Shown in pieces: positions 10,140 through 29,149 of a DNA stretch of 35,074 bases. Each line of letters begins with the position of its first letter. Within the stretch, counting starts at the first letter, position 1. Below the pieces are notes generated by a model. That model worked only from the letters and a program-made list of their open reading frames with translations, was not told the origin of the DNA and did no database searches. Origin of the DNA: Chthoniobacteraceae bacterium (GTDB taxonomy: Bacteria; Verrucomicrobiota; Verrucomicrobiia; Chthoniobacterales; Chthoniobacteraceae); contig JBBCKI010000007.1 in NCBI GenBank assembly GCA_037190965.1, forward strand, positions 1 through 35,074, given 5' to 3'. The translations under genes were made by a program, and so were the position numbers.

Positions 10140-13100
10140 TCAACGCTCCCCAAGAAGCCGTTCGACTTCGGTGGCAACGGCGGGGCGAAGTTCAAGATCA
10201 CGCAGTTCGGCGGGAACGCGTTCTGTGGAGTCTCGTCCCGAGCGGCGAAGGTATTCGACGATCGCCCGCGCATCCTTGTTCCCCGGATTGCGGAAGGCCT
10301 GCCCGAGCACCCGTTTGGCGGCGGGAAAATCGCCGTCTGCCAGCAACAGGCGCGCGTAGCCGAGGAAAACCGGGGTTTGCTGCGCGGCGGGATCCGCGGC
10401 GACGGCTTGCTCGAAAAGATCGCGAGCGAGTACCGGGTCGCCAATTTCCTGCGCGGTCAGGGCGAGACGCCCGCCTACCGTGAAGTCGGTGGTGAAAACC
10501 AATCGGAGGGCGGTACGTTCCAGAATGGCCGAGGCCTCCGGATCGCGGCTCAGCGCATGAAGGCTGAGGGCGCGACGGATGGCGTGGTCGGCGTTCTCGG
10601 GAGAGCGGCTGAGAAGGACGCCGCTGATCTTCAGGGAAAGATCATGTCGGTTGCTCCGCTTGCATCGCTCATCGAGCCAAGTCAATAACGGTTCCTGAAC
10701 GTCGCGCCGCTCGAGCAATAGGGAGAGCGCGGCGGCGGGAGCCTCCTTGTCCGGGGTATCGAGCAGCGCGGAGACGAGCCATGCCCCTGCCACGGGGGAG
10801 CCCTTTCCGTCATCCCACACTTCCAGGAGCTCGTCCATTCTCTGGCCGGACGATTGCCATCGGGAGTCGGCGGTCAGCTCAAAGTAGGCTGAGAGAAGCT
10901 CGGGCCAGCCCATCGCCAGCTCCCGAAGCCGGCGCAGGCCGCGTGCAGTGTTTGTCGACGGGGCGGATTGATCGCTCCCGGCCAACAGGACCAGTTCCCG
11001 CTGATAGTTGAAGGCAGCGCGAGGCTTTCTCGCTTCCGCCGCATTCTCCACGCCGGATGCCAGGAGCGCCAGCCCGTCATTCCTGCGGCCGTGTTTTGAA
11101 AAGGCGTCCGCCAGTTGTCTGGCACGAGTGGCGTCTTCCCCACGCACCAGGTCCGAGGCGATGATTCGCGCCTGGGCATAAGCCCCGGATTCAATCAGCA
11201 AGGTTGCTCTTTTTGTGGCTGCCTCGGGACTGCGTGGAGAGGCGATTTCCAGGAATTTAAGAGCTTCCTTGTGACGATCCGGTCCCTGAGCGGCGAGGAC
11301 GTCGGCAAGATTGAGAAGATAGGCTGGGTTATTCCTCTGCATGGTCACCAGTCGGGCATAGCTCCCCTCGGCTTCCTTCCATTGTTTTTGCTTTGCCTGG
11401 AATCTGGCCAGCGCCTCCAGCAAGCGCGGATCGCCGGGGGATTTTTCAACCAGCGCGGCGGCAAGCCGGGCGGCACGCGGGAGATCCCTGGCAGCCATGA
11501 ATTCGAGCGCGGCGGGGGCCGAGTTCGGGTCTCTCTCCGGGTGGGCGGCCCAGCGCTCCACGAGCGCCTCGGCCTCGGCAGTTTCATCCGCCGCGATGTA
11601 AGCGCTCAACAGGCGATGGATGGGGGTGAGCGGTTCCATTTCGGCGATAGTTTCGAGCACCCGTGCCGCCGCCACCTTGAAGCCGCCGCTTTCAAGCAAC
11701 GAAACAAGCTGGTTGAGCGGGGTGACGGAAACCTGGGTTGCCAGGGCGTCGAGTTGTCGCCTCGCTTCGCGGCCGTCGGCCGCAAGCAGCTTGATAGCAG
11801 CCAGCCGCATCCTGATCTCGCTGGCAAAAGCGGTCACTCGTTCGCCCTGCAGCTGGATGGAGGCTTCATCCCTCAAAGCACGCTCCCAAAGAAGGATGGC
11901 CGCTTCATTGAGCTGCCACGTTTGAAATTGAATTCCCGCAATGAGCAGGAAATTCCAGACCCGCTCCGTGGCAGGGGCGTCGCTTACCGATCCCGGTCGG
12001 AGGGTTACCAGTTTTTCCAGAGCTTGGCGCGATGCCTCATTCGCTCCGGAGAGCGTCTGCACGAGAGCGGCGGTCAGGGTGGCATGGACCGGGGAGGCAA
12101 AGCGCCCGTTCTGCTCCGCTGCCGCCACGAGGGTCTGCTCGGCCCAGGCCTTGCGTTCGAAATGGGGCAACAAAAGGCAGAGTGCGCGTTGCGCGGCATA
12201 GGTGGGGGCGTCGAGCGAGTCGGCGGGTTCCGCCGCCACGCTACGCAGCAATGGCTCCGCCTCCGCCAGATTTCCCAAAACTAAATGCCATTGGGCGAGG
12301 GCCAGCCCGGCACGGCTTCCGAGTTGGGTGACCGGCGAGGGAAGTTCTTTGAAGACTCGGTTACCCACCTCGGCGGCCTCGCGAAGCCGCCCGTGGGTGG
12401 CCAGCGTTTCCGCGCAGAGCCAGACTTGCGAGAGCGGCGCTTTGTCAAAAAGGGTCTCGATGTCGAGAGGGGCGTCCAGCATGCACCATTCGCCAAGCAG
12501 CGTGCGGAAGATCTCGAAGTCGTCGGCGTTGCGTCCCGGGCTCCAGAGCCACGCGGCGAGATCGGCCCAGTTGGCGCTCTGGAGTCCGCTCCACAGCAAC
12601 GCCCCACGCCGAGCCGCGCCCGCCTGCGGCTGCTCGGCCAGCTCAATGAGGCGGGGAAAGTCCTCTTTTTCCGCCCCCGCGTAATGAAGAGCCCAGAGTC
12701 TTTCGGAAGGGAGAGGCTCCGCGCTTCGACGTGTCTGCCACCGGGCGATCCACCGTTCGCGCTCCGTTTCGTCCTGCCTTGCTTCCAGGGCGAGAAGACG
12801 AATGGCCTCCAGTCGCCATTCGCGCTCCGTCGCGCCGTGCGCCCGTTCGTTGAAGAGGGTGACGGATGCCGAGGGCGCAGGGCTCGGCGACGGGGTGCCG
12901 AAAGTGGAAAAATGGGCGCGCAGCCGGTTGCCCAGCGGCGGCTGCGCCGGGGGAAGCAGGAGCGATTCCTCCGTCTGCAGGCTTCTGGCGTGATTCAGGA
13001 CGGCCTCGGCCGCTTCCCGGTTTTCGCTTTGATCTTCGCTTCCGGTCGCCAGCCTTACCAGTCCCGCAGCCGCCGGAACATTGCCGGGGTCAAACGCCCG

Positions 13101-16004
13101 TACCGCGCGCAAGATCTCGCGGGCGCGTGAGGTGTTTCCCCATTTTTCAAAATACCGGGCACAAAGAAGAAGCGCCTCGGAATCGCGGGGGAAACGTCGG
13201 ACAATCCCATCGCGGGTCTCGTCTGCCCCGGCATAGTCGAGGGCGGCCTCTTGAAGGTACGCCAGCCTTTCCCAATCTGTCGCCGAGGGAGAGGGGAGGA
13301 AGGTGAGCCGAAGCTTCTGATGCCGGGCGGCTTCGGCAAAATCACGCAGCGTTTCTGCTTCCTTGGTCAGCGATTCTTCCGCGACGGCACGGTCGGGCGC
13401 GCCGAGCGAAGCATTCTGGAGCTGCCGGTAAGCCTCGTCCATTTGTCCGTCAGCTTTGAGTGCGAGAGCCAGCGCGTTGGTGTCGAAGGAACTGCTCCCG
13501 GGTTTCTCCGCGCCCGCCCGAAGTTTTTCCAGAAGCCATGACATCGTTTGGCGGCTTTGGCATTGGGCGATGAGATCATGCAGAATCGCGGAACGAACCG
13601 ACTCGTCGGTCTGCTCCTGGTAGGCGCTCCACAGGAGATCCGCCACGCGGGCATGCATGTTCAGCCGTTGCATCACCCTGACGAGTGGCTGCAAAAAATC
13701 GTATCGTCGCGCATGTTTTGCCGAGGCGTAGAGACTTTCCCAGGTGGCGAGGGCGTCGTACCAGCGGTCGGCTTGCTGCTGGCCTTGCGCGAGATCCGCC
13801 AGCGCGGCGGAGTCGCCGGAGGCGGCCAGTCCCTGGAGAATCTCCAACGACTCCTCGGGCTGCCCCATTTGGAGCTTAAGCTGCGCGAGTTGTTTGAGCC
13901 ACGGCTCCGGGTGCCCGCCATTGAGTTTGCTGAGCTCGGCAAGTTGTTCAAGGTACGTGGCGGCGGATTTGCGATCATTGGAGGCCATCGCCAGCGCAAC
14001 CGCGAGTTCCCGCGCGGGGATCGTCTTTGGATCGAGCGCGATGGCCCGGGTGACGGCGGCGCGAGCCAGCTCCAGATCGCGTTTCCAGAAGTGCCAGCGA
14101 GCCAGCCGCAACCACGCCTTGGCATCGTTCGCGCCCTCCGCTGTCCGTGTTTTGGCCTGGAGGGTGGCGATGAACTCCCTCAACGCCGCGTCGGAGGAAG
14201 GCGAGGGCGACGGATGACCGGAAGGCGGCGTGCCGGGGGCGGTGAGAAGGGCGGTGGCGGCGCGGCTGGCTGCCGTTTTCAGAGAGGGAGGCTCCTTTGC
14301 GGGTGAAGAAGGTTTTGCAAACGGCTGGGCGCCTCCTTCGATGGCACGGAAAAGTCGTTGATCCGCCTCGGCTTCCTCCGCATCGGTCCGGCTGAGGGTG
14401 AAGGCCCGGGAGAAGGCTTCCACCGCGTAGGCGCGGGCATTGGCGGCAGACTCGGTGGCGGCTGCGCCGAGGCAGAGATCTCCCAACGCAAGATGGAGCG
14501 CGCGGGAGTCAGGCTCCAGCGCCGCCGCCGCGCGCAGTTCTTCGATGGCCGCGCCGATTTCGCCCGCTTGTTTAAGAAGCTCGCTGGCTCGCTGATGTTG
14601 CGCCGCTTTTGTCTTGGGTGGATCGTCCGCTTTTATCAGGCGCTTCAGGGCCTCGCGTGCTTCCTCGGGACGTTGAGCGCGAAGAAGGAATTCGGCAAGC
14701 GCCGCAGGGTCGGCGTTCGGCTTGCGGAGCACGGCCTCCAGCGCATCGAACATCCGGTGTTGCTGGAAAAACGCGAGCGCCCGTGCGGCTTGCGCTTCGT
14801 CGCCCCCGGAAATCGCCGTTAGCGTCTCGATGCGTCGCCGGGCTTCGTCGGGGTTGTTCAGGCGAACATCGAGTTCCGCCCGATCGAAGACGAGATCCGC
14901 GTTCTTTCCGCTTCCCGGGTCCGCCGCCATGACGGCGTCGAACATCGCGGCGGCGGCGGGCAGGTCGTCGAGTTTAACCAACAGCCGGGCGAGACGGGCC
15001 TTTACGGCGAAATCTGAGGGAAGGAGCTCGACGACTTTCTCCAAGGCGGTGCGCTCATCGCCGGGTTTGCCCTCCCGGGCATAAAGCTCCGCCAATTGCA
15101 GCCAGGAGCCCGGAGCGCGAGGGGCGGCCTCTGCCGCTTTCTTCCAGCGGGCCTCGAGTTCCGCGGTCCGATTGCTCTGTTGGCTGAAGCGGATCATCTG
15201 CGTGATGAGGTCCGCACGCATCCAGTTGTTCGCCGAAGTCAAGGCGATTGCTTTCTCAAGGACATCAAGCGCTTCGTCGGCCTTGCCCTCGGCCTGGCGA
15301 ATTCCGGCCAGAGAACGGAGGGCATTGGCGCGCGTTGCTGGGTCGCCGTGCGCCTCGAGATAGGCGTAGTGCGCGGCGGCCCGTTCCGTCATCCCGCTTT
15401 CGCTGTAAAGCGTGGCAAGCCGCTGGCGCAGGTCGAGGTTACCGGGATTCAGGGCGGTCATCTTCTCCCAGGCTGTCGCCGCCTTCTCGGGCTGCCCCGC
15501 GGCCATCCATGCATCCCCGGTTTCTTGCAAGAGATCGGGAAGCACCGGCGCGGAGGGGGGGAAGAGCGCCGCAGCCTGCTCCAGTTCCGCCGCCTTTTCC
15601 GCAAGCGGCAATGCGCGCGCCAGCGCCAGATGTGGCAACGGGCTTTTCGGGTCCGTTTTTGCCGCGTCCCGCAAGGCGGCGATCGATTCCTCCTCCCGGC
15701 CTGCGCGGTGGAGCAAAAGCCCCGAAACCATCTGCCCGGTGAAATCGCCCTGTTCGGCAAGTTTCCGGTAATCCTCAAGGAGTTGATCGGTGAACCCTTC
15801 CTCAGAGGCGATTTTCCAGAGACGTTCGAGCGCGGTCCCTTCGACAGGATTACCGGCAAGCATCTGCCGGTAGCGCTCTACGATGCGGGAATCGGTGGCT
15901 GCCGATGCGGAAGCCAGACCGAGAGCGCACCATCCCGCCAACGCGGCGACCCTCGCAATCCCATGCCAGGGGCGCATTCCGGAGTAGTGGGAGGGGCGGG
16001 TCAT
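10140..16004 (-). CDS. large exported tetratricopeptide-repeat protein (1954 aa)
   Basis: Signal peptide (ALGLASASA) and many TPR-like helical repeats (A..LNP.N..L, ALEPDSRALHLALG, AIALDPK). Long uninterrupted frame. Confidence 0.85.
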   Translation of the reverse strand: MTRPSHYSGMRPWHGIARVAALAGWCALGLASASAATDSRIVERYRQMLAGNPVEGTALERLWKIASEEGFTDQLLEDYRKLAEQGDFTGQMVSGLLLHRAGREEESIAALRDAAKTDPKSPLPHLALARALPLAEKAAELEQAAALFPPSAPVLPDLLQETGDAWMAAGQPEKAATAWEKMTALNPGNLDLRQRLATLYSESGMTERAAAHYAYLEAHGDPATRANALRSLAGIRQAEGKADEALDVLEKAIALTSANNWMRADLITQMIRFSQQSNRTAELEARWKKAAEAAPRAPGSWLQLAELYAREGKPGDERTALEKVVELLPSDFAVKARLARLLVKLDDLPAAAAMFDAVMAADPGSGKNADLVFDRAELDVRLNNPDEARRRIETLTAISGGDEAQAARALAFFQQHRMFDALEAVLRKPNADPAALAEFLLRAQRPEEAREALKRLIKADDPPKTKAAQHQRASELLKQAGEIGAAIEELRAAAALEPDSRALHLALGDLCLGAAATESAANARAYAVEAFSRAFTLSRTDAEEAEADQRLFRAIEGGAQPFAKPSSPAKEPPSLKTAASRAATALLTAPGTPPSGHPSPSPSSDAALREFIATLQAKTRTAEGANDAKAWLRLARWHFWKRDLELARAAVTRAIALDPKTIPARELAVALAMASNDRKSAATYLEQLAELSKLNGGHPEPWLKQLAQLKLQMGQPEESLEILQGLAASGDSAALADLAQGQQQADRWYDALATWESLYASAKHARRYDFLQPLVRVMQRLNMHARVADLLWSAYQEQTDESVRSAILHDLIAQCQSRQTMSWLLEKLRAGAEKPGSSSFDTNALALALKADGQMDEAYRQLQNASLGAPDRAVAEESLTKEAETLRDFAEAARHQKLRLTFLPSPSATDWERLAYLQEAALDYAGADETRDGIVRRFPRDSEALLLCARYFEKWGNTSRAREILRAVRAFDPGNVPAAAGLVRLATGSEDQSENREAAEAVLNHARSLQTEESLLLPPAQPPLGNRLRAHFSTFGTPSPSPAPSASVTLFNERAHGATEREWRLEAIRLLALEARQDETERERWIARWQTRRSAEPLPSERLWALHYAGAEKEDFPRLIELAEQPQAGAARRGALLWSGLQSANWADLAAWLWSPGRNADDFEIFRTLLGEWCMLDAPLDIETLFDKAPLSQVWLCAETLATHGRLREAAEVGNRVFKELPSPVTQLGSRAGLALAQWHLVLGNLAEAEPLLRSVAAEPADSLDAPTYAAQRALCLLLPHFERKAWAEQTLVAAAEQNGRFASPVHATLTAALVQTLSGANEASRQALEKLVTLRPGSVSDAPATERVWNFLLIAGIQFQTWQLNEAAILLWERALRDEASIQLQGERVTAFASEIRMRLAAIKLLAADGREARRQLDALATQVSVTPLNQLVSLLESGGFKVAAARVLETIAEMEPLTPIHRLLSAYIAADETAEAEALVERWAAHPERDPNSAPAALEFMAARDLPRAARLAAALVEKSPGDPRLLEALARFQAKQKQWKEAEGSYARLVTMQRNNPAYLLNLADVLAAQGPDRHKEALKFLEIASPRSPEAATKRATLLIESGAYAQARIIASDLVRGEDATRARQLADAFSKHGRRNDGLALLASGVENAAEARKPRAAFNYQRELVLLAGSDQSAPSTNTARGLRRLRELAMGWPELLSAYFELTADSRWQSSGQRMDELLEVWDDGKGSPVAGAWLVSALLDTPDKEAPAAALSLLLERRDVQEPLLTWLDERCKRSNRHDLSLKISGVLLSRSPENADHAIRRALSLHALSRDPEASAILERTALRLVFTTDFTVGGRLALTAQEIGDPVLARDLFEQAVAADPAAQQTPVFLGYARLLLADGDFPAAKRVLGQAFRNPGNKDARAIVEYLRRSGRDSTERVPAELRDLELRPAVATEVERLLGER

Positions 16005-17414: not shown

Positions 17415-19856
17415 ATGCAACGACATCCATTTGAAGGGCCTCGCTTATTGCTTCTGGCAGCGACCATGCTGACGGGAATCTCAGTAACGGGCTCCCGGGC
17501 CGCCGACCTCGTTGCCACCGGTAACCTCGATATTGGCGGAAATGCCGATATCCGTGGCACGACCTTTACATTGGGCTCTTTTACCAACGACAACGCTCAG
17601 CCCGGCGTGATTCTGACCTATACAGATGCCGTTACCACGAATCCCCCCGAGCCGTCATTATTGAGATTCACGGCAAACCGCCCTTCGCATGAATGGGTTT
17701 GGGATCATCAAAATGAAACCCAGACTGGCACCGTGCTGACGATGAAACTCGATGCGGATCATCGACTGAGTCTTTTTTCTCCGAGTGATTCATCGACGCC
17801 TGCCATTGTGCTTGATCCGGAGCTTGGCCAAATAGAAATCAATGGAGTCCCGATTACCGAAGGCGGCGGGTTCAGTTCGCTGACAGTCGGCGCGGGAGCT
17901 TCGGCTGGGGAGTGGGCCATTGCGGCTCTTGGTTGGGATGCTGCCGCCACTGGTTGGCAGTCATTTGCGGCGGGATGGGGACCGACCGCTTCCGGCCTTG
18001 GCTCCATCGCTATGGGGGGAGAGACGACCGCTTCGGGCGAATACTCCACCGCTATGGGAGAGTACACGACCGCTTCGGGCGAATATTCCACCGCTATGGG
18101 GCGGGGTTCGACCGCTTCGGGCGAATATTCCACCGCTATGAGTAGGTCGACCGCTTCGGGCAGATATTCCACCGCAATGGGGGACAGCACCAGAGCTTCG
18201 GGCGATTCCTCTACGGCAATGGGATATGGTACATGGGCTTCGGGGGAAGCCTCCACCGCCATGGGGCAATCCACGATCGCTTCGGGCACGAACTCCACCG
18301 CTATGGGGGTGGAGACGACCGCTTCGGGCAGTTATTCCACCGCTATGGGAGCGGGGACGGTAGCTTCGGGCAATGGCTCCGCCGCTATAGGAGTGGGAGC
18401 GAGAGCTTCAGGCAATATCTCCATCGCAATGGGGAATGCGACCATCGCTTCGGGCGCGGACTCCACCGCTATGGGGGTGGGGACAACCGCATCGGGCGAT
18501 TATTCGACCTCAATGGGGAGAGGGACGACCGCTTCGGACATGGGCTCTATCGCTATGGGGGACAGTACGATCGCTTCGGGCACGAGCGCCATTGCTATGG
18601 GGGGATTTACGACCGCTTCTGGCGATTTTTCCACCGCTATGGGTTATGGGCCAAGTGCTTCGGGAGATTTCTCCACCGCTATGGGGGAGATTACGACCGC
18701 CTCGGGCGATTCCTCTACCGCAATGGGATCATGGACGTACGCCTCGGGCTATTCCTCTATCGCTATGGGGACGGAGACGTACGCCTCGGGTTATTCCTCT
18801 ATCGCTATGGGATACCGCACTGTTGCGGGAGCCTATCAGCTTGTCATAGGAAGTATGAACATCCGGCTTCCTAGCAGCAATGAAGATGTGTCGCCATTTA
18901 GGCCTGCGCTTTCCGATGCTCTATTTATTATTGGAAATGGCTGGTATGAAACCGGCACCTCGCAAGAAAAGCGCAGTAACGCATTCACTGTTAACGCAGC
19001 CGGGGATGTTATGGCGGCAGGCAACCTAACTCTCGGTTCCTTTACGAGAGATGAGCAAGGTAATACCCAATCGGCCATCGCAATTGCCTACACGGATGCC
19101 GCAGAGGCTGTCGAGAACACCCCGGCGACACCATCGCTATTGAAGTTCACAGCCAACCGTTCTTCTCATGAGTGGGTTTGGGAGCACCAGAATGAAACCC
19201 AAACCGCCGCTATTCCGACGATGGTGCTTGATGAGGATCATCGGCTCGTTCTCTTTAGCCCGAGCACACCGTCCGCTCCGGTGATCGTTCTGGATCCCGA
19301 GCTTGGCCAGATTTTGGTGAACGGTGTGGCGCTGGGGCAAGCCTCCACCTTCATTTCCGTGGGAACCGGCGCTTCAGCCAGCGAAAGCTCCATCGCTGTG
19401 GGGAGCTCCGCCAGTGCCAGCGGCACAAATTCTGCCGCATTGGGTAACAGCGTAACAGCCACCGGAAATCATGCTTTCGCGGCGGGTTCCGACACGACAG
19501 CTTCCGGTGAAGCCTCTGGCGCGTTCGGTCGCGGCACCACTGCCGCGGGCGCAAACCAACTCGTGGTTGGAAGATACAACGTCCTCACATCCGGCACGGG
19601 AGACGATCCTGAACCGTCCGATGCCCTGTTCATTGTCGGCAATGGTACATCCACGAGTGAACGCGCCAACGCCATGACCGTAAACGCCGCTGGGGATGTC
19701 GAAGCCGCTGGCAAGGTGACCGCAGGAAGCGACATCACAACCTCGGGGGTGATTGTGTCAACGGGAACCGGACAATCCCGTTTCGCGGGCGCAATCCGCA
19801 TCTTGCCGCAGGGCGACCTGTCAATGGGCGAGTTCACCAACGAGTCGACGCCATAG
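17415..19856 (+). CDS. secreted fibre/adhesin with YadA-head-like 14-aa repeats and a C-terminal QGDLSMG tag (fibre A)
   Basis: Signal peptide from MQRHPF..GSRA. About 21 ASGxxSxAMGxxTx repeats, DALFIIGNG..RSNA connector twice, internal duplication. Ends ILPQGDLSMGEFTNESTP with no beta-barrel anchor. Confidence 0.85.
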   Translation: MQRHPFEGPRLLLLAATMLTGISVTGSRAADLVATGNLDIGGNADIRGTTFTLGSFTNDNAQPGVILTYTDAVTTNPPEPSLLRFTANRPSHEWVWDHQNETQTGTVLTMKLDADHRLSLFSPSDSSTPAIVLDPELGQIEINGVPITEGGGFSSLTVGAGASAGEWAIAALGWDAAATGWQSFAAGWGPTASGLGSIAMGGETTASGEYSTAMGEYTTASGEYSTAMGRGSTASGEYSTAMSRSTASGRYSTAMGDSTRASGDSSTAMGYGTWASGEASTAMGQSTIASGTNSTAMGVETTASGSYSTAMGAGTVASGNGSAAIGVGARASGNISIAMGNATIASGADSTAMGVGTTASGDYSTSMGRGTTASDMGSIAMGDSTIASGTSAIAMGGFTTASGDFSTAMGYGPSASGDFSTAMGEITTASGDSSTAMGSWTYASGYSSIAMGTETYASGYSSIAMGYRTVAGAYQLVIGSMNIRLPSSNEDVSPFRPALSDALFIIGNGWYETGTSQEKRSNAFTVNAAGDVMAAGNLTLGSFTRDEQGNTQSAIAIAYTDAAEAVENTPATPSLLKFTANRSSHEWVWEHQNETQTAAIPTMVLDEDHRLVLFSPSTPSAPVIVLDPELGQILVNGVALGQASTFISVGTGASASESSIAVGSSASASGTNSAALGNSVTATGNHAFAAGSDTTASGEASGAFGRGTTAAGANQLVVGRYNVLTSGTGDDPEPSDALFIVGNGTSTSERANAMTVNAAGDVEAAGKVTAGSDITTSGVIVSTGTGQSRFAGAIRILPQGDLSMGEFTNESTP
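17946..18825 (+). repeat. intragenic 42-bp tandem repeat array (about 21 units)
   Basis: Recurring ACCGCTTCGGGC-N6-TCCACCGCTATGGGG-N6-ACG, in frame within fibre A. One unit is 39 bp. Confidence 0.9.
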
Positions 19857-19981
19857 TCGAGAGCGGTCTATTCCCCTGTCTCACCCTCCCCAAGAAGGAG
19901 CAGTCCCTTCCCCCTGACCATGATTGTCGCTCTCGCCCATCATCATCTGATCCATCCAACCATTCCGAAGGGGCGGTAAAT

Positions 19982-20398
19982 CTGAGGCTACTTGCTGCTG
20001 TCTCGGGGCTTCTCATTCTGCCGTTGATCGTTTTTGCCTCGGCCCCGGGCTGGTGGTCTAACTCCCAGCCGCCGGTCATCGCTCCTAACGCCACTCCGAA
20101 CGATTACGCCGCCGTAAACCAAGGGCAGGTCAAAAATATTGCCAAGGCAGCGGTGGCGGAATTTGACGCCAATCTTCCGGGCGGTGCCGGCGATGTGCTG
20201 CATGCCCTTGTAGATGGCTGGGCCACCCCACAACTCACTGGCACGGCTGCCACCAACGACTATGCAGCCATCAACCTCGGCCAACTCAAAGCCGTCGCGA
20301 CGCCATTCTACGCCCGTCTCATCGACATCGGCTACAGCGACGATTACCCATGGATCGATTCGCCCAACCAGGCAAGCGACTACCGTCCGTCTCAGTGA
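19982..20398 (+). pseudogene. truncated paralogue of the 24095-29149 carrier (N-terminal NDYAAVNQGQ domain only)
   Basis: APGWWSNSQPPVI..NDYAAVNQGQVKNIAKAAVAEF..NDYAAINLGQLK..YPW..NQASDY is highly similar to the N-terminus of 24095-29149. Similarity stops at about 20383, followed by RPSQ*. No in-frame ATG precedes the signal-like stretch, so the start is uncertain. Confidence 0.85.
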
Positions 20399-21216
20399 AT
20401 TCGGAAAAGGCCCCTCAGCGCAAATCGAGTGATATTGAGAAATGGGCATGGTGGCGAGAGATGAGCGAGAAAGACAGGTTTTTTGAATATAAGATGCCAA
20501 TTTCGTTCTACGGCCGAGTTGTAGACGATAAAGGATCGCCGGTTTCAGGTGCAAAGATGCAATGCACATGGACCGATCTAAGCAGCAATGGAACTAGCAA
20601 GCGGGACTTGGAGAGTAATGCAAATGGATTCTTCTCTCTTGAAGGAGCTACAGGCAAAGGCTTGCTCATAGCTGTAAGAAAGGAGGGCTATAAACCTTAT
20701 TTTTCGAAAAATCAATTTAGCTTTGAATATGCTATGTTTGCTGATCCGAACTATCACATTCCGGACAAAGCACATCCGGTGATCTTTGTGCTCCGGAAAA
20801 ACCGCGAAACGGAAGCACTGATTGCTCATCTCAATCAAGAGGCCGAACTCGCCCCAGGTCAGAAGAAGGCTTTTTCCATTGGTCCGGGCGACGCGGCCGT
20901 CTTGGTCGAGCGCTTGCCTAACATTGGCAACGGACCGGGCGGTTGGGCCGCCAGGGTCAGCGTGCCGGGTGGCGGATTGGTGATCTCAACCGAAGAGTTT
21001 CCTTTTGAGGCACCTGAGAGCGGCTACTCCCCAGTTGTGGAAGTGACGGATAAAACGCCGAAGCCACCAACGTGGTCCGGCGACAATGGCGCTGCCTTCT
21101 TCGTAAAGACGCCCAAAGGATATGGTCGCATCACAGTGCGCAATACACCAGGGATGTCGTGGGTCTACGTTTCGTCTTATCTCAATCCAAAACCGGGCAG
21201 CCGCAATTTGGAATAG
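20384..21216 (+). CDS. carboxypeptidase-regulatory-like (beta-sandwich) domain protein, probably 5'-truncated; candidate immunity/accessory gene
   Basis: PISFYGRVVDDKGSPVSGA..SNANGFFSL..VRKEGY motif, ending NPKPGSRNLE. No signal peptide survives. A possible GTG start at 20395 overlaps the upstream TGA. Confidence 0.65.
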
Positions 21217-21300
21217 AATTACTTATAATAACAGATCCTGCGTGTGGGGATGATCGTCGGTCACTCTCCCCTCCGTAGCTCTGCTCCTTGGAGAAGGGAT

Positions 21301-21766
21301 GGGGTCAGTCAACAAATCTCGACAGAAAAGCGGCTTCTGGGTGTAGTTGATAGGGATGCCACGTCAACCAGAATCGAGCATCCCGGAGCGCGCTATCACG
21401 TCATGCGAGGAGAGATCGAAGGGAGCCGATTTTCGAAGACGTAAAGACCGGGACGATTTTGGAAAAGCTTGGGTGGAGCGGCGGAACGCTTCGGCCGGAG
21501 GATCTATGCATGGGTGTTGATGGATAGCCATTACCATTTTCGAATCAAATTTCCGTCACAAGGGGAGAGCGCCACGCTGAGCGAGTGGCGATTGCTTGGA
21601 TGCTGAATAGGGAAACAAATCTGCCGCAAAACTTTGCCTCCATAGAGCTGTCAATGTGAATCAGCAGATAGGGCGATTTCCGAACGAAATCGGCAATCCA
21701 GCGAGAGTGGCGAATGCGGAGGGAGATCAAAATGGGTGGAACTGGTCAAGAATTGTTGACTGATCC
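21301..21766 (+). mobile_element. decayed, internally deleted RAYT element with both inverted ends
   Basis: Left end GGGGTCAGTCAACAAATCTCGACAG; right end GTCAAGAATTGTTGACTGATCC. From 21356 there are frameshifted matches to MPRQPRIE.PGA.YHVM..IYAWVLMD.HYH, and from about 21553 to the C-terminus (ERVAIAW.L..TN..NV.QQ..RF) of 30382-31440. Confidence 0.85.
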
Positions 21767-22014
21767 ATTCTCACCATTCGAGCCGATTTTTAGTTTATGA
21801 TTGCGCTATGTTTAACGGAAGGTGCCAAATATTTTACGCTTGACTGATGATTCAGTTTCAAACCAAGGTGTTATTTAATGTTCACGGAATCAAGGGAATC
21901 AACAAGCTTCAGAAACGCCAGATGGACTGACTGGTAGGGCAAGCTCGGCAATTGGAGTAAGGAAATGATCAGGATCCCCCGACCGAAGCATTCGGTCCAC
22001 CCATTTTACAGAAT

Positions 22015-24012
22015 ATGAAGCCTTCAAAGAAGAAATCTTATCTTGGTGCGGTAATAGCGACGGTGGCTCTATCGATTTCACCCGGTCTACATGGCGATGA
22101 CCTGGATGTCGTAGGAAACCTTGATGTAACTGGAAATGTCGACATCCATGGCGATTCCCTTACTCTTGGCGCATGGGATGACAATTCCGCTATGCCTGGG
22201 TTTGGGCTTTTATATGACGATGGGACGACAGGAAGTATTTTATTGCAGGCGTCCCGGTCTTCAGCGCAATGGCTGTTTCAGCATCAGGCCAGCGGCGGAG
22301 GTTGGTCGAATGCGTTCAAAATTGATGCCACGCACCGTTTGATTTTGTTCGGCGCCAGTCCCGCCAATTCCGAAAGTATCATTCTCGATCCCATCGGGAG
22401 CAGCAGCTTTGGTACTTCCGTAAATTTCCTTGGCTCGAACAATCAGATGCCCAATCAAACGCTGGCTTCGACCAGCAGCATCCTGACTGCGGGGCTCGGC
22501 GATGCCCGATATTTGAGACCTGGCGCTTTACTTTCCGGCACGTCCTCGCACACTTTTGGTGTTGCTCAGAATCCTTCATGGAACGGACAAGGCTTGACCA
22601 TTAAGGCGGGGGATGGTGCGGCAGGCGTAGCGGATAGGAGTGGAGGTAGTTTGATCCTATCCAGCGGAGCGGCTAATGGTGCTGGGTGGGGGGGATCAAT
22701 TTTACTTCAAACGGCCTCCAATCCCGCGGCATCGGGAACGTCAACCCGTTCAATGGTAACGCGGATGACCATCGATGGCCGGACTGGAAATGTCGGGATT
22801 GGCGCGGGTGCTGGCATGGGGTTCACATGGGCTAATATAGCTGGCAATCTGGATGTGTCTTATGGGGGAGCACCCGCAACTCTTGTTCTTGGTGCGGATC
22901 TTAATTTGCATACACGCTCTGATGCCACCTACAAGAAATTCACTATCGCGTGCCCTCCCTATTACAATTCCCAGCATGCAATTACCGTGATCGGGGCATC
23001 GATTTATAGCGATAGGAGTGAATTATTTATTGGTGGAGCCTCGTCGACGCAACTAGGCCCCACGGATGTGATTATTATGACGCACCTGTCGGAGACGTCA
23101 GCGAATGGCGAAGAGCGAATGCGATTTTACCGGAATGGAAGCATTACGGTCAACGGCAATCTGGTTCAGAATACCACCTTCAGAATCAAAGGAAACGTCG
23201 ACGCCAACTTATTCGTGACCAGTGGATCCAATGACAGCGTCGGGGTCGGTGTAGCCTCACCTCAGGCAAAGCTTCATGTAGGGGGTGGTCTCAAAGTGGA
23301 TGGGAGTGCTTCGATTTCTGGCGGAATTAATGTCAGTGGTTCAGCAAGTATTACCGGGCCTCTCGCAATTTCAGGCACCGGCTCTCTTAGGCTCCCGGAC
23401 GGGACTGTGCTTTCGGGCAGCAATACACTCCAGAGCGTAATCACCAGTGGAACGGCTTTGACGATCTCAGGAGCCGTCTCCGCAAGCCAGGTTACGGGTC
23501 TGTCTCCCGTTGCCACCAGCGGAAATTACACTTCGTTAACTGGCTTGCCCACAATCCCATCTAATACCAATCAGCTCGCCAATGGAGCAGGTTTCATTAC
23601 GTCAAGCGGAACTGCGGCATTCGCTCAAGCCAGCGGGACAGCCACCGCTTTGAGCGGGACCATACAGGCCATACAGGTCGCTGGCTTGTCCGGAGTAGCC
23701 ACAAGCGGCGACTACGCCTCGTTATCCGGCTTGCCGACAATCCCTACTGATACCAACCAACTCGCCAACAGTGCGGGCTACGTAACGGCTAGCGGCACAA
23801 CCAGCGGCATCACTCTTTCAGGAACGACAACCGCAACCGGCAGTATCGTCGCCACAGGAGGCGTTGTTGTAACGGGCACCGCAGTGGAGGTCACCTCAGG
23901 GACGACAACCGTGACCAAAATCGTTTCATCGGGGAGCAGTCAACTGGTTCTCATTCCCGAGCAGGGAGATCTCTCGATGGGAACCTTCACGGCAGGTCGA
24001 ATTCCCCAATAA
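22015..24012 (+). CDS. secreted fibre with phage-tail-fibre-like motifs and a C-terminal QGDLSMG tag (fibre B)
   Basis: Signal peptide and an N-module shared with fibre A. Motifs RMTIDGRTGNVGIG, ERMRF, VGVGVASPQAKLHVGG, and 2x VATSGxYxSLxGLPTIPxxTNQLANxAG. Ends LIPEQGDLSMGTFTAGRIPQ. Confidence 0.8.
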   Translation: MKPSKKKSYLGAVIATVALSISPGLHGDDLDVVGNLDVTGNVDIHGDSLTLGAWDDNSAMPGFGLLYDDGTTGSILLQASRSSAQWLFQHQASGGGWSNAFKIDATHRLILFGASPANSESIILDPIGSSSFGTSVNFLGSNNQMPNQTLASTSSILTAGLGDARYLRPGALLSGTSSHTFGVAQNPSWNGQGLTIKAGDGAAGVADRSGGSLILSSGAANGAGWGGSILLQTASNPAASGTSTRSMVTRMTIDGRTGNVGIGAGAGMGFTWANIAGNLDVSYGGAPATLVLGADLNLHTRSDATYKKFTIACPPYYNSQHAITVIGASIYSDRSELFIGGASSTQLGPTDVIIMTHLSETSANGEERMRFYRNGSITVNGNLVQNTTFRIKGNVDANLFVTSGSNDSVGVGVASPQAKLHVGGGLKVDGSASISGGINVSGSASITGPLAISGTGSLRLPDGTVLSGSNTLQSVITSGTALTISGAVSASQVTGLSPVATSGNYTSLTGLPTIPSNTNQLANGAGFITSSGTAAFAQASGTATALSGTIQAIQVAGLSGVATSGDYASLSGLPTIPTDTNQLANSAGYVTASGTTSGITLSGTTTATGSIVATGGVVVTGTAVEVTSGTTTVTKIVSSGSSQLVLIPEQGDLSMGTFTAGRIPQ

Positions 24013-24094: not shown

Positions 24095-27000
24095 ATGCAT
24101 CGACCCTCTCCTGACTCTGAAAAAGGCCTGGCAAGCCTACGGCTTTTTGTTTCTTTTCTAGGTTTGTTCAGTTTGTCTGTACTTGTCCTCGGCGCGGCTC
24201 CTGCTTGGTGGTCCACATCCAACCCTCCAGTAGTCAACGACGCAACCCCCAACGATTACGCGGCCGTTAATCAGGGGCAGGTTAAGAACATTGCCAAAGC
24301 GGCGGTGGCCGAGTTCGAACTCCGTCTCCCCGGAGGGGCAGGGGTTGAACTGCACGATTTGGTTGATGGCTGGGAAACTCCTGGCGGAGCAACCAACGAC
24401 TACGCTGCTGTCAACCTTGGACAATTGAAGGCACTGGCCAAGCCGTTTTACGACCGGCTTAAAGCGGTAGGATATGTGGCAGATTACCCGTGGGCCGATT
24501 CGACGAATCCAGCAAACGATTATGCAATGGCCAATATCGGCCAGGTTAAGAATCTCTTCGCTTTCGACTTAGCCAGTATCGATGCCATTCATGACACCGA
24601 CCAGAATGGGCTGCCTGACTGGTGGGAAAAATACTATTTTGGCACGATTGGCAGTGATCCAGAGGGTGACGAAGATGGGGACGGACTCTCCAATCTCGCG
24701 GAATTCCAAGCAAAGAGCAACCCCAAGGATTATTATAGCCAGGGTAATGCGGAGCTTTCGCCCGTGCTCTCCATCGTTGGCGGTAATTACCAGTTTGGCC
24801 TTTCGGAGGCGCTTTTGGAGAAACCACTGAGGGTCGAGGTTCGAAATGCTTCCGGGGGCAGCCTCCTCGTCAATGCTCCCGTCCGCTTTTCGGTAGGTGA
24901 AGACGACGGCATTTTCCGGCTAAGCGAAAATGGCGTGGATGCAGGCCGGGAGATTACGATCCGAACGGATGCGGAAGGCATTGCGTCAGTCTTTTATCGG
25001 CAGGGAAGCGCCCTCGGAGTTTTTAGCGCCATCACGGCCCAGGCCAAACCTACGGTTGAAGTCACCCTTCACTCCGCAACCGTGCCGGAAGATCGTCTGG
25101 TTGGTCACTGGCGTTTTGAGGAGGCAACCGGAAACCTGGCTGCCGACAGCGGCCCGTTTGGGTTCGATGCAATCTTGGTCAATCCTCAATGGTCACAACG
25201 ATACACGGGGGAAGGCGACCTCGTTTTCAGTGGGCCAGTCTCCGAAGGAGGGAATGACTCCCACGTACTGATTGAGGAGCCGACTCATCGCGCCTTCGAT
25301 TTTAACTCGGAGAGTTTTACCCTCGGCGCATGGGTGCGATATGATGAAACGGCGCTCCCCGGGCGGATCATCAGCAAAGGAAACGCCGGTTCCACCCCCG
25401 GTTATTATCTCGCCGTCTCTTCGGACGGAACTTTGGAATTCGGCATCGGCACTTCCGCGAACAGCGCGGCTGAGTCCGTTTTGGTTCGTACGGTGGAAGC
25501 CTTTGACGACAATGAATGGCACCACGTTGCCGCCGTCGTGGACCAGGCCGGAGGAACGCTCCGCGTTTACGTGAACGGCATCCCGGCAGTCCTGGAGAAG
25601 GAAACCGGCACGGGAGGATCGGTGGATGAAGAGGATGAAGGCCTCTTTTCTTTTCCTTCGCTGGAGCACCTGAACGCGGGAGCGCCAGAAGATCCGGCAA
25701 GCCCGCTTTTGTTTGCTAGTCGGGGAGGGAACGATGCCTTTTTCAAAGGCGCGCTGGATGAGGTGCGTCTGTATCGGAAGGCGTTAAGCCAGGAAGAGGT
25801 GGGCGAGCTTTACCGGAGCGAATCCCCGCTCACGGCCAAAAACGCCACGCTCAACATCGAGGAAGACACCCTTGGCGTCCTGCTCCTTCCAGTGGAAGGC
25901 GGCGGCTCAACGCCCGCGCTCTATTCCATCGTGACCCCGCCGCAAAATGGCACCCTCGTTCTTGAGGGGCAAACGGCCAATTATTACCCCAATGCTCACT
26001 ACAACGGAAGCGACAGTTTCCGGTTCAAAGTCACCAAGGGTGCGAGGGAAGCAGAGGCGAACGTGACCATTACCGTCACCCCCATTGATGATCCCCCGCT
26101 GGTCAGCGTCGGCGGCGGGCGGAGCGTCCTCCTCTCCGGCACCTTGAATCTTACCGCCGTAGTGACTGACATTGACACCTCGCCCGAGAACATCCGCATT
26201 CAGTGGATGAAGGTCTCTGGCCCCGGCGAGGTTACGTTTGGGACACCGAAGGAAAATACCACCACCGCCACCTTCAGCGCAGCGGGCATGTATCTTCTGC
26301 GCGCAAGCGCCTATGATGGCACCTCCACCCGAAGCGATTCGCTCGTCGTCACCGTCCAGGAGGGAGAGGAAGGCGATGGTCCCACGGTATCCCTGGAATC
26401 GCCCGCCAATGATGTCGGGTTTGATTTCCAAACGCCCATTCTTCTCCAAGCCAGCGCGCTTGCAAGCGGAACGAGGAATACGATCGAAAAAGTTGAATTT
26501 TACGAGGGATCTCGAAAGATCGGTGAGGCCACCGCCGTTGACATCGGCAGCGGCTTTTATCAGATCCACTGGACTCCGTCTCGGATCGGCGCGTATGCGA
26601 TCAGCGCCCTGGCCGTGGAGAGCACCGGGCAAAGCCAGTTTTCGGCGGCACGCACGTTAAGGGTGACGCAACAGGGGTGGTTCAGCGCGGGAGGAACTCC
26701 CGCCGGTAACGAAGGGTACAGCGGCAGCGGCGGTAGCGGCGGCATTTCGGAGGGTTCCGGAACCGGCCCCGGCGGCGGCCACGGCCCCGGAGGTGGAGGC
26801 GGTGGAGGGGGAAACAGCGCGGGCGGCGGAGGCGATGGCTTCGGTAATCCCAATGGGACTGATCCAAACTCGATCGACAGCGACGGCGATGGTTTGAGCG
26901 ACGCCGAAGAAGCCGAGCTTGGGACCGATCCGCTGATTAAGGATACCGACGGAGACGGTTATACAGACCTTGTCGATGGTTGGCCGAGGGATCCTGATCT

Positions 27001-29149
27001 TTATCCTCCGCGTCTGCCCAATCCCCATTACTTGGTGGTACCGCTTGCGAGTCTTCATTCTGACAATGCAACATGTTATTACGGTCAAATGAACGAGCAT
27101 TTTCAGTTTGTACGGACTACCGAGCAGGGATGGTATTGGGACGCTGCTGATACGAATCCTCCAGTGTGGGTTCCCTTGGATAGCATCGATGAGCACAAAA
27201 CGATCAATAACAGAGGAGATGTAACTGGGCATATGCTCATAGATCATTTCTCCCCTTATCCAGGGTACGTAGATCAGGCCGCAGCCACTTGGAGTGCCTC
27301 AAGTGGGACGACAATGATCGACACTGTATTGGAAAAGCCGTATCCAGAAGGTTATCGAAGTACTTCCGCTTTTGCGATAAATGATGATGGAGTTGCTGTT
27401 GTAGCGGATTTTAGAGATGGGAATCCTAAATACTTTGTTTGGAGCGCAGGCGGCAAGGTGTTGCTCCCCAATAACTTTGAGCCATGGGCTATAAATAACG
27501 GTGGGGTTGTTATCGGAAACGGACTATGGGACGGTGGAGTGCTGCACGGTGTCGGAGATGGATTTTTTTGGGGCATTAGCAATTCAGTTGATTATCCAGT
27601 TGCGATCAGTAATTATTTAATATGTTCTATTTGGACTAGAGATCTCATTTCAGGGTGGTCATCGAAACCTTTGCTTGTGCGTGACCGACTCAATCGGCGC
27701 GACGTGCTTGGCTTCGGATCTGCTATCAACGATAGATGTGAAATTGCTGGCGAATTTGGTCCAGGCACTAGTTTTGATGTTATTCGAAATGGAGAAAGGT
27801 TCACATTGGGTAATTTGGGTGATGGATGGAACGTTAGCTGGGTGTACAATATAAACAATCAGGGGGTTATTTTTGGGGAAGCCATCAAGAATGGAAGCCA
27901 AAAGGAAGAGCAAGTATTACTCTTGCCGGTTGAGTTAAAGGATATCAAGAAAGTCGCCGATCTCGACGACGACGTTTATATCGAAGACATCGGGCCTAAG
28001 AAGCCCGGAGAATCCGAGAATGCTTATATTCAACGCCCTTTAAGTAATCGACAAATCGCCTGGATTGAACCACACGGCGCGGTTAACGGCACCGATCCAG
28101 AAATGCCCCATTTGGTGGCTAAGCTCTCAGGACCGGCAAAGCTGAAAGCGCGGTGGAAACTGGAAGTGGAATACAAACGGGGCAACGGCTACCGAGACTA
28201 TTACGTCAATGACTTTACGCAATTCGAGGATACGGTAAGGATCCCAGCTAACGGTGACTACACTGCGGAGATGAATGCTGATCAGGAGTGGCGGATTTTC
28301 GAGACGACGGACTGGATAGACGAAATTGCTCAGCGGGGCTTTTTCGGTGGTACGGCTAAACTTTATGTTTGGCTTCCAAGTCAAGGAGTGGCACCTATAG
28401 AGCCATTTATGACTTTCCGTATCGGCGGTAAAAATCCTGACCAAACGAAGGCCAAGACGTTCATCAACAGCGAGGCAGGAAGCGCATTCTGGTACGCCTA
28501 TGCCATCGCGAAGCATGAGACGTTTGGCCGCGTCAGGGAAAACGGGGTGGTCCGATTCTACAACCAGTTTTATACCGACTACAAGAGTTCCAAGATTGGT
28601 GACGCCGCAATTGATATGGGTTGGGCAGCTTACGCCAAGGCATGGCCGTTATATAACCTTGACCGGGACAAATATGAAAGCGGTCCAAAAAAAGGCCAGC
28701 GATACCAGAACGGTCCCGGTGGATATGGGATGTACCAGGTAACCCTAGGACCAAAGCTTCCGAATGACGCCATTCCTCAAGGAGGAGAAGGCTTTATAAC
28801 ACGCGGTCAAATTTGGAATTGGCAAGATAACGCTCGCCGTGCTATCGAGGAACTGCAAGGAAAGGCGTCTACAGCTCAATCGCTTCATAATGGACTAACA
28901 TCCACCTATCCTAATTCTGGAGCCATCCCCAGCTATAAGCACTTCTCTGGATTGGAAGCCATTGTGATCACTTACTATAACGGAATGGGCGGCGGACAGA
29001 TTCGCCGTGTTGCAGTAAATGGATATAGGACAAGACCCAGGAGTTGCTGGGCTCCCTTCGCCGGAGGTTGGGAGTTTCTACATAATAGATATGTAGATAC
29101 TGGCGCCAAGACAGGATATGTTCATGCTGTGGATAAGCACGTTGAATAA
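24095..29149 (+). CDS. large secreted multidomain protein, putative polymorphic toxin with a lysozyme/transglycosylase-like C-terminus
   Basis: Signal peptide; 3x NDYAxxNxGQ(V/L)K; DxDxDG Ca-binding repeats; LamG (LVGHWRFEE..WHHVAAV..FKGALDEVRLY); cadherin/PKD/Ig-like domains; Gly-rich linker; IN(N/D)xG propeller-like repeats; tip motifs AIAKHET, GYGMYQVT, YYNG. Confidence 0.8.
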   Translation: MHRPSPDSEKGLASLRLFVSFLGLFSLSVLVLGAAPAWWSTSNPPVVNDATPNDYAAVNQGQVKNIAKAAVAEFELRLPGGAGVELHDLVDGWETPGGATNDYAAVNLGQLKALAKPFYDRLKAVGYVADYPWADSTNPANDYAMANIGQVKNLFAFDLASIDAIHDTDQNGLPDWWEKYYFGTIGSDPEGDEDGDGLSNLAEFQAKSNPKDYYSQGNAELSPVLSIVGGNYQFGLSEALLEKPLRVEVRNASGGSLLVNAPVRFSVGEDDGIFRLSENGVDAGREITIRTDAEGIASVFYRQGSALGVFSAITAQAKPTVEVTLHSATVPEDRLVGHWRFEEATGNLAADSGPFGFDAILVNPQWSQRYTGEGDLVFSGPVSEGGNDSHVLIEEPTHRAFDFNSESFTLGAWVRYDETALPGRIISKGNAGSTPGYYLAVSSDGTLEFGIGTSANSAAESVLVRTVEAFDDNEWHHVAAVVDQAGGTLRVYVNGIPAVLEKETGTGGSVDEEDEGLFSFPSLEHLNAGAPEDPASPLLFASRGGNDAFFKGALDEVRLYRKALSQEEVGELYRSESPLTAKNATLNIEEDTLGVLLLPVEGGGSTPALYSIVTPPQNGTLVLEGQTANYYPNAHYNGSDSFRFKVTKGAREAEANVTITVTPIDDPPLVSVGGGRSVLLSGTLNLTAVVTDIDTSPENIRIQWMKVSGPGEVTFGTPKENTTTATFSAAGMYLLRASAYDGTSTRSDSLVVTVQEGEEGDGPTVSLESPANDVGFDFQTPILLQASALASGTRNTIEKVEFYEGSRKIGEATAVDIGSGFYQIHWTPSRIGAYAISALAVESTGQSQFSAARTLRVTQQGWFSAGGTPAGNEGYSGSGGSGGISEGSGTGPGGGHGPGGGGGGGGNSAGGGGDGFGNPNGTDPNSIDSDGDGLSDAEEAELGTDPLIKDTDGDGYTDLVDGWPRDPDLYPPRLPNPHYLVVPLASLHSDNATCYYGQMNEHFQFVRTTEQGWYWDAADTNPPVWVPLDSIDEHKTINNRGDVTGHMLIDHFSPYPGYVDQAAATWSASSGTTMIDTVLEKPYPEGYRSTSAFAINDDGVAVVADFRDGNPKYFVWSAGGKVLLPNNFEPWAINNGGVVIGNGLWDGGVLHGVGDGFFWGISNSVDYPVAISNYLICSIWTRDLISGWSSKPLLVRDRLNRRDVLGFGSAINDRCEIAGEFGPGTSFDVIRNGERFTLGNLGDGWNVSWVYNINNQGVIFGEAIKNGSQKEEQVLLLPVELKDIKKVADLDDDVYIEDIGPKKPGESENAYIQRPLSNRQIAWIEPHGAVNGTDPEMPHLVAKLSGPAKLKARWKLEVEYKRGNGYRDYYVNDFTQFEDTVRIPANGDYTAEMNADQEWRIFETTDWIDEIAQRGFFGGTAKLYVWLPSQGVAPIEPFMTFRIGGKNPDQTKAKTFINSEAGSAFWYAYAIAKHETFGRVRENGVVRFYNQFYTDYKSSKIGDAAIDMGWAAYAKAWPLYNLDRDKYESGPKKGQRYQNGPGGYGMYQVTLGPKLPNDAIPQGGEGFITRGQIWNWQDNARRAIEELQGKASTAQSLHNGLTSTYPNSGAIPSYKHFSGLEAIVITYYNGMGGGQIRRVAVNGYRTRPRSCWAPFAGGWEFLHNRYVDTGAKTGYVHAVDKHVE

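Follow-up and report, generated by a model that had tools for sequence, protein, structure and literature searches.

The window analysed here is a stretch of 35,074 nucleotides (nt; positions 1 to 35,074 of the forward strand of contig JBBCKI010000007.1, assembly GCA_037190965.1) from a Chthoniobacteraceae bacterium of the phylum Verrucomicrobiota. It carries two cassettes, A and B, each composed of a gene for a fibre-like protein and, immediately downstream, a partner gene (Table 1). Fibre A, which ends in ...LPQGDLSMGEFTNESTP, and fibre B, which ends in ...IPEQGDLSMGTFTAGRIPQ, close on the same short C-terminal motif, referred to below as the tag. The partner proteins begin with a repeat module that follows the signal peptide, whose cleavage was judged by eye only.

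Table 1. Genes and sequence elements of the two cassettes, in window coordinates (aa, amino acids)
Feature	Position	Strand	Description
Fibre A gene, 847 aa	17313..19856	+	Signal peptide, N-terminal shared domain, YadA-head repeat blocks, C-terminal tag
Shared N-terminal fibre domain in A, aa 60-169	17490..17819	+	38% identity to fibre B aa 24-126, window 22084-22392
Tag A, IRILPQGDLSMGEFTNESTP	19794..19853	+	Core QGDLSMGEFT at 19809-19838
Cassette A partner gene, 124 aa from ATG	20024..20398	+	Signal peptide, PxWW, two DYAxxNxGQxK repeats only
Fibre B gene, 665 aa	22015..24012	+	Signal peptide, shared N-terminal domain aa 24-126, C-terminal tag
Tag B, LVLIPEQGDLSMGTFTAGRIPQ	23944..24009	+	Core at 23962-23991
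Cassette B partner/cargo gene, 1684 aa	24095..29149	+	Signal peptide, N-terminal PxWW and three-repeat module
N-terminal module, aa 32-170 of the 1684-aa protein	24188..24604	+	PxWW, then three repeats of (N/D)DYAxxNxGQ(L/V)K plus helix

The two fibres resemble each other at their ends. BLASTP aligns an N-terminal domain of ~110 aa (E 3e-18), of which fibre A holds a partial second copy at aa 610-662, and the last ~47 residues including the tag (E 0.002); whatever else aligns is low-complexity noise. A sequence-only reading of this DNA had described a shared C-terminal tag on two fibres with unrelated centres. The tag is borne out and the middles are indeed unalike, but the common N-terminal domain had escaped that reading. 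Fibre A contains 13 YadA_head stretches (Pfam, E 8.5e-58), whereas such head repeats are absent from fibre B, whose middle falls in no Pfam or NCBIfam family. The tag cores of A and B are identical at 21 of 30 bases, and six codons differ synonymously in the third position, so the conservation is one selected at the protein level and not the trace of a recent DNA copy. A third tagged fibre of ~925 aa lies on contig C5 of the same genome, and shares 67% identity with fibre B over its last 267 aa. This C5 fibre and fibre B (window 23400-23800) also contain tandem repeats of ~45 aa with the pattern VATSG(N/D)Y(T/A)SL(T/S)GLPTIPxxTNQLANxAG(F/Y)(I/V)T, which recur in the fibre B relatives P0002-P0004 and P0008 and fall in no Pfam family.

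Within its own genome the tag is rare and strictly placed. A six-frame scan of the 4,214,775 bases with GD[LIVM][SPA]MG.[FYW] returned exactly three matches, all 6-7 residues before a stop. A looser motif matched 49 times in open reading frames (ORFs) of at least 150 aa, with five matches within 15 aa of the stop: the three fibres, one doubtful 150-aa ORF and one PEP-CTERM protein. Six of nine fibre B relatives in a protein collection end in the same motif, while in the relative P0007 another 21 aa follow it. The scan was then carried across species (one genome per prokaryotic species) with a degenerate DNA pattern encoding x-QGD(L/F)-x-MG-x-F. It yielded 77 loci, 43 of which constitute the true tag family. 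In all but one of these the motif stands 2-12 residues before the stop of an ORF of 151-1355 aa; in the 43rd member, L066, it stands 65 residues before. L076 is a further probable tag, outside the 43, in a 44-aa ORF at a contig edge. The other 33 matches lie in short ORFs or at arbitrary distances from the stop, mostly in other phyla, and are therefore regarded as chance matches.

The taxonomic distribution is equally narrow. Verrucomicrobiota-labelled records account for 39 of the 43 tagged loci, under the labels Chthoniobacterales, Spartobacteria, Opitutales, Lacunisphaera, Verrucomicrobiales, Phragmitibacter and Akkermansia; among the remaining four, one is labelled Lentisphaerae and three are unlabelled. 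A chance or low-complexity origin of the tag was considered and is ruled out by its position and its restriction to these taxa. A search of the kind that the sequence-only reading had proposed finds the motif largely confined to one phylum and to C-terminal regions. It is near the end in most cases and not always at the very end: besides P0007, three fibres carry S/T/Q-rich tails of 38-65 aa after the tag, so the motif need not lie close to a free C-terminus.

In consensus the tag reads h-x-h-(P)-x-Q-G-D-L-(S/A)-M-G-x-(F/Y)-T and runs on into a short G/P/Q-rich tail. The scan pattern itself demanded Q, G, D, M, G and F, and the conservation of these residues is not independent. Conservation that was not imposed comprises L at +3 in all 43 members (F was also allowed), I, V or L at -3 in 41, T at +9 in 37, P at -1 in 34, and the G/P/Q-rich tail itself. 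The cores QGDLSMG, GDLSMG and GDISMG, along with the module cores VNQGQLK, VNLGQLK and DAVNVAQL introduced below, were not found in the full-text literature, subscription journals not covered. Literature listings, with the same coverage, held nothing relevant on a Verrucomicrobia YadA C-terminal motif or on YadA or collagen-like proteins of Akkermansia.

No known family accounts for the tag. Pfam was applied to 31 of the 43 tagged ORFs, whose bodies contain YadA_head (9), CBM96/DNRLRE together with collagen (5), Laminin_G_3 (1) or no more than a marginal match (16); in none of the 31 does a Pfam family, a known anchor included, cover the tag, and NCBIfam covers it in none of 12. When 44 C-terminal 60-mers were searched with Pfam at E <= 10, only collagen (12 segments) and scattered noise appeared, and YadA_stalk matched none of the 44 tag segments. 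YadA_anchor, YadA_stalk and the S74/G2 chaperone domain are missing from all 31 ORFs, and neither the anchor nor a peptidase S74/G2 domain was found in fibre A or B by Pfam and NCBIfam scans. Only about 20 aa follow the fibre body, and no C-terminal chaperone domain that would fill that place was matched. In relatives the same place is occupied: a Burkholderia YadA-like protein with the head repeats of fibre A ends in a neck, stalk and anchor region, and Bacillus and Priestia plasmid relatives of these head repeats are annotated as peptidase G2 autoproteolytic proteins. The tag does, then, sit where an anchor or a chaperone would ordinarily be, as had been supposed.

That position invites the view that the tag is an autonomous trimerisation and folding nucleus. 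Together with the preceding hydrophobic strand it would form a C-terminal β-hairpin cap that registers three chains, and the neighbouring gene would be linked to it functionally without binding the tag. YadA_head and collagen, present in 9 and 5 of the 31 tagged proteins, are obligately trimeric kinds; collagen directly precedes the tag in 12 of the 44 C-terminal segments, and the collagen-type members possess no other recognisable C-terminal trimeriser. The tag occupies the place of trimerising modules in relatives, and h-x-h-P-x-QGD-LSMGxFT would be compatible with a strand-turn-strand. Near-invariance across orders and across unrelated fibre types is, however, more typical of recognition by a common partner, the tagged protein L015 consists mainly of a LamG domain, and the strict pairing with a module gene described below would be left unexplained. 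On this balance we consider a self-sufficient trimeriser unlikely. Small C-terminal elements that terminate trimeric fibres are familiar: the T4 fibritin foldon is a small trimerising element of this sort, and the peptidase S74/G2 chaperones are likewise small or removable. The tag region differs from these in comprising ~20 aa and no protease domain, and self-trimerisation was not seen in the co-fold controls.

The most informative feature of the locus is the partner gene, which the sequence-only reading had passed over. The genome contains exactly three tags and exactly three repeat-bearing ORFs, and these are adjacent in all three cases. In cassette B the 1684-aa partner continues after its module with TSP3-like, LamG, Ig-like and PKD domains, while its C-terminal ~700 aa belong to no family; the last 484 aa had no match in the PDB, and window 27695-29149, which encodes the C-terminal ~480 aa, gave no Pfam, NCBIfam or PDB sequence match. 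By eye, a KHETFG ... GYGMYQVT pattern in that interval might hint at a lytic transglycosylase. The partner of the C5 fibre is a protein of >3,987 aa encoded directly downstream of it, and ends in YD/RHS-like sequence at the contig edge. The partner in cassette A is the shortest and matches the module profile over positions 2-112 (E 2.3e-47). It ends (...SDYRPSQ, then stop) exactly where the third repeat should start, and overlaps, in another frame, a 288-aa ORF at 20350-21216 in which a CarboxypepD_reg-like domain is weakly matched. This partner may be a remnant left by rearrangement or else a short form in its own right; similar two-repeat ORFs of 145-147 aa exist in genome G176.

The pairing extends well beyond this genome. 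DNA downstream of the tag is available at 42 tagged loci. At 38 of these the following ORF on the same strand begins with a hydrophobic leader and an invariant PxWW, and in 37 of the 38 it also matches the repeat pattern (N/D)DYAxxNxGQ(L/V)K in two or three copies. The gap between tag and partner is 0-422 nt, and most partner ORFs begin <50 nt downstream. When genes within ±4 kb of the 43 loci were clustered, the module was present at 40 loci and two fibre clusters at 24 and 12; every other cluster was present at no more than six, and no third conserved cassette gene was found in that range.

The association was also approached from the other side, with a module profile unbiased towards the tag, on 201 genomes sampled across the phylum. 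It located 33 true module places in 22 genomes, and 32 places were examined for an upstream tag (one regular-expression match proved false and was dropped, and at one place the module comes after another module in tandem downstream of the same fibre). At 16 of the 32 the upstream same-strand ORF ends tag-like, including the variants QGGLSMG, QGDVSMG, QGDISMGxY, TGDLSSGTY and AGDLTMGAF. Seven more have diverged endings (QGDLSFGIY, QGDIPMFGE, SDISMGPFT, AGDIPGITY, SGDIPSIAY, KGDIAVGPY, SGIPMF), and at two the tag lies ~6 kb upstream. The strict tag pattern is found in 8 of the 201 genomes (11 places, as against none for a reversed-pattern control), and all eight are among the 22 that bear modules. 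At two loci, L128 (G143:C14) and L129 (G122:C73), stop-to-stop ORFs of 94-114 aa end in PPQGDL(G/R)MGPYTNG, and an RHS-like gene comes next; the module gene is situated ~6 kb further downstream, behind an ORF ending in a dockerin/EF-hand-like DVNxDGxxDAADV motif. In L092 (G074:C13, 1657-2289, minus strand) the two elements occur in one frame: a signal peptide and a short fibre-like segment are followed by the tag-like VRVPPAPGLPMGAFTNAG directly before PxWW, and the fusion gene is itself directly downstream of a LamG-type tagged protein that ends in QGDLSFGIYTNGAPANAD.

The module is ~135 aa long and is covered by no Pfam or NCBIfam model. In tag-paired loci it is followed by RCC1 propellers, LamG, Ig-like, TSP3, fn3 or He_PIG domains, RHS repeats (L064) or Amidase_3 (L046), and in the protein collection also by alpha/beta-hydrolase, glycoside-hydrolase, CBM6 and RHS bodies; the source names of these proteins are 'hypothetical' or derive from the body domains. 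Among 1.84 billion sequences the module profile retrieved 4,991, 3,047 and 1,616 cluster representatives (50% identity) at E <= 1e-3, 1e-10 and 1e-30, respectively. In the best 150 matches the module is nearly always N-terminal, in proteins of 175-5,532 aa.

An AlphaFold2 model of the module from 39 sequences is confident (predicted local distance difference test, pLDDT, 83.8; predicted template modelling score, pTM, 0.80), and each of the three repeats is modelled as a short bridge followed by a helix. The two best structural neighbours by VIA-align are SLH domains, 6bt4_A (Z 7.1, root-mean-square deviation 4.2, 104 aligned residues) and 6cwc_A (Z 6.6), ahead of the next at Z 4.2, and the match spans model residues 1-129. 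Foldseek returned nothing significant, its best match being the SLH domain 3pyw at E 0.5. Pfam SLH (PF00395) matched none of 39 modules at E <= 1, which makes the resemblance a lead and not a membership. Two further searches with the module were set aside: against PDB sequences its profile gave a single meaningless match (a variable lymphocyte receptor, E 1.6), and in the ESM Atlas the best score was 0.76 with an SLH cluster at rank 4, below the threshold for a lead. Like SLH triplets, the module would comprise three tandem repeats of ~45 aa in one pseudo-trimeric helical unit at the terminus of diverse surface proteins. Unlike them, it shows no sequence match to the family, and it pairs with the gene of an adjacent protein partner, whereas SLH domains, to judge from PDB entry titles, bind pyruvylated cell-wall polymer.

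The SLH likeness bears on a second rival, in which the tag and the module are each read by machinery or a polymer encoded elsewhere, for sorting, secretion or envelope attachment, and the two proteins are delivered together with no tag-mediated binding. An SLH-like module may, for example, bind a glycopolymer while the tag serves as a secretion or processing signal. Both elements are terminal and conserved while the bodies that bear them differ widely, as is usual for sorting or anchoring modules; the nearest folds of the module are cell-wall-anchoring SLH domains; and some tags and some modules occur with no adjoining counterpart. Against this stand the lack of a third conserved gene within ±4 kb of the 43 loci, the absence of Pfam SLH from all 39 modules, and the distance of the tag from the C-terminus, which varies from 2 to 65 aa. 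A generic signal, moreover, needs no dedicated partner gene for each fibre, yet in this genome all three fibres have one. The tag also differs in construction from the signals best known for such a role. PEP-CTERM/exosortase signals are, like the tag, short conserved C-terminal motifs and are common in the phylum, but there, as in LPXTG and similar signals, a hydrophobic transmembrane helix and a basic cluster follow the motif; after the tag come only 2-12 polar G/P/Q-rich residues or a long S/T-rich tail. Other proteins of the same genome, on contigs C27 and C5 (23723-26764, minus strand), end in PEP-CTERM tails of the usual make-up (IPEPST, then a hydrophobic helix and a basic cluster), so that an exosortase-type sorting system coexists with the tag and is distinct from it. 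All told, separate reading of the two elements strikes us as rather improbable.

Tag and module are each a conserved terminus on a variable body; their genes are neighbours, they are distributed together, and no third gene accompanies them. They are most simply read as a cognate docking pair. The sequence-only reading had left a choice among a new sorting, trimerisation or docking signal. Its core, a conserved and unannotated signal near the C-terminus, stands, and the gene pairing, together with a weak co-fold result, now tilts the choice towards docking. We put at about an even chance a two-gene surface-protein cassette, largely confined to Verrucomicrobiota, of which the tag would be the conserved C-terminal half. 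That it acts as a docking tag, joining mostly trimeric fibres to a pseudo-trimeric adaptor, is a proposal for which belief and doubt are in our view evenly balanced.

Modelling of the putative complex points weakly in the same direction. Three copies of the last 60 aa of fibre B and the module, each supplied with an alignment, co-folded at a score of 0.47 (runs 0.47, 0.49 and 0.46), classed as 'weak support', as against 0.00 for the best of three controls. The runs agree in at least 92% of contacts, with a partner pLDDT of at least 74, and the tag chains reach a pLDDT of 58-63 with the module versus 31-34 with unrelated partners. The latter values, which include no confident self-assembly of three tag copies, also speak, if weakly, against the autonomous trimeriser. 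In the calibration, 116 of 157 solved complexes attain the passing mark, as do 2 of 215 mismatched pairs, and passes at <=0.60 comprise 18 of the 157 solved complexes and both passing mismatches; the calibration pairs were single chains, and its counts hold only roughly for a 3+1 job. When the L092 fusion was aligned together with modules and tags (A3), MAFFT set the tags (PQGDLSMGEFT) on the third module repeat (xDDFAxANIGQxK). The placement is probably an artefact and was not used; it could instead be a hint that the tag mimics the strand part of a module repeat.

In the docking mechanism that we propose, gene 1 would encode a fibre ending in the tag, Sec-exported and as a rule trimeric (YadA-head, collagen-like or other), and gene 2, directly downstream, a Sec-exported protein whose mature N-terminus is the ~135-aa module. 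The module, as modelled, would fold as a single-chain pseudo-trimer, on which the tags of one fibre would dock. Most tagged proteins being of obligately trimeric kinds and the module a three-repeat pseudo-trimer, three tags per module are proposed, plausibly one on each of the three repeats. Docking would link a trimeric stalk to a monomeric and highly variable cargo such as lectin-like propellers, RHS proteins, an amidase or hydrolases. By analogy with phage tail-fibre assembly (TFA) proteins, the module could also serve as an assembly template for the fibre end. The motif with its conservation, placement and taxonomic range, the gene pairing seen from either side, the confident module fold and the lack of known anchor, chaperone or sorting features are observations; physical binding, its stoichiometry and the end that faces the cell are inferences.

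Several observations weigh against docking. Four of the 42 tagged genes (L045, L054, L062, L072) have no adjoining module gene, and for 7 of the 32 module genes no tag lies nearby. Genomes that share descent do not count as independent cases, and the co-occurrence counts overstate significance accordingly. The co-fold pass belongs to the weak class, in which results err more often than not unless the guess was a probable one to begin with. AlphaFold2 left the tag-like part of the L092 fusion at pLDDT <50 with no intramolecular docking to be seen; this part has no alignment depth, and the model (module part at pLDDT 85-96, residues 21-88 below 50) is uninformative on docking either way. The resemblance to SLH domains, at a Z of about 7 (<8), is below the secure level of the search, and SLH domains bind cell-wall polysaccharide, which would favour an anchoring role of the module over peptide docking.

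A more specific form of the docking proposal draws on the type Vc trimeric autotransporter adhesins (TAAs). Fibre A and the nine YadA_head members of the 31 tagged proteins share head repeats with this class, and the AVNxGQLK of the module has the same core as DAVNVGQL in the necks of one genuine YadA-like protein (...ERRITNVAAGVNDTDAVNVGQLN...). In seven of the 39 modules YadA_stalk is matched at AVNxGQLKAVA of repeat 2 (E 0.0023-0.18), in every case short of the 28.4-bit cut-off. In contrast to type Vc adhesins, the fibres here have neither the YadA_anchor β-barrel nor the stalk, and the stalk-like motif resides in a separate protein, three times per chain. The arrangement could accordingly be pictured as a split and inverted trimeric adhesin. 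AVNxGQLK plus helix, which occurs once per chain at the neck-to-stalk transition of a TAA, would occur thrice in one chain with an SLH-spindle-like fold; this single-chain module would imitate a trimer, take one tag from each chain of a homotrimer, resolve the 3:1 mismatch and mount a monomeric cargo, and may also nucleate trimerisation of the fibre. We regard this display as doubtful, if a little less so than outright unlikely. A literal 'split TAA neck', in which the tag would stand for the RRITNVAAG half and the module repeat for the DAVNVGQL half, was discarded, YadA_stalk being sub-threshold in the modules and unmatched in the tags; it survives only as a speculative shade of the display just described.

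The gene order also recalls phages, and the cassette could be a prophage-derived pair of a receptor-binding tail fibre and a downstream chaperone or adhesin. PMC9608196 describes a phage fibre gene followed by a gene whose product acts on the distal C-terminal end of the fibre, with some products staying attached and adding function, and states that the TFA protein of phage Mu remains on the distal fibre after helping it to trimerise. As with Mu TFA and T4 gp37/gp38, the partner gene is directly downstream (38 of 42 loci), and the head repeats of fibre A match five PHROGs of unknown function. The module, fibre B and the C5 fibre, by contrast, match no PHROG, and in 2.9 million viral contigs (IMG/VR) the strict tag pattern occurs at one place, which is a chance match at residue 6 of a 164-aa ORF with no module. 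No phage genes adjoin the cassettes in the window, and within ±4 kb of the loci no neighbour proved conserved. The partners, finally, are unlike assembly proteins in being huge, running to thousands of residues, in carrying Sec signal peptides, and in bearing enzymes or RHS repeats. A prophage origin is accordingly very improbable.

On the picture of a split and inverted adhesin, the cassette would represent a phylum-wide modular protein-protein docking system of the Verrucomicrobiota, with a logic comparable to cohesin-dockerin and extending to Akkermansia-labelled genomes. Docking of the tag on the module, should it hold, would be an undescribed way for these bacteria, which range from soil and freshwater lineages to Akkermansia-labelled gut genomes, to build their surface structures out of parts encoded by separate genes. 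With a tag/module pair defined, it would become clear how fibres of the YadA-head and collagen-like kinds are held with no β-barrel anchor; the pair would provide an annotation handle for thousands of giant 'hypothetical' proteins, and would be a compact natural 3:1 trimer-to-monomer connector for protein engineering. The module on its own marks a large uncharacterised family. Were the tag merely a fibre cap, it would still be a new family signature, of modest interest.

Some minor observations concern an individual genome and the surroundings of the cassettes. In G201, a metagenome-assembled genome labelled Akkermansia muciniphila (L045, L120, L125, L127), there are one tagged YadA-head protein and three module genes; the downstream neighbour of the tagged gene is not a module gene, and one module gene lies at a contig edge. 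The cassette there may have been split by assembly or by rearrangement. In the window, a 1,954-aa protein made up largely of TPR repeats is encoded upstream of the cassettes (10140-16004, minus strand). Just downstream of cassette B are two adjacent Y1_Tnp (IS200-like) transposase ORFs (29886-31440), followed by the gene for a 921-aa RHS-repeat protein (31690-34455).

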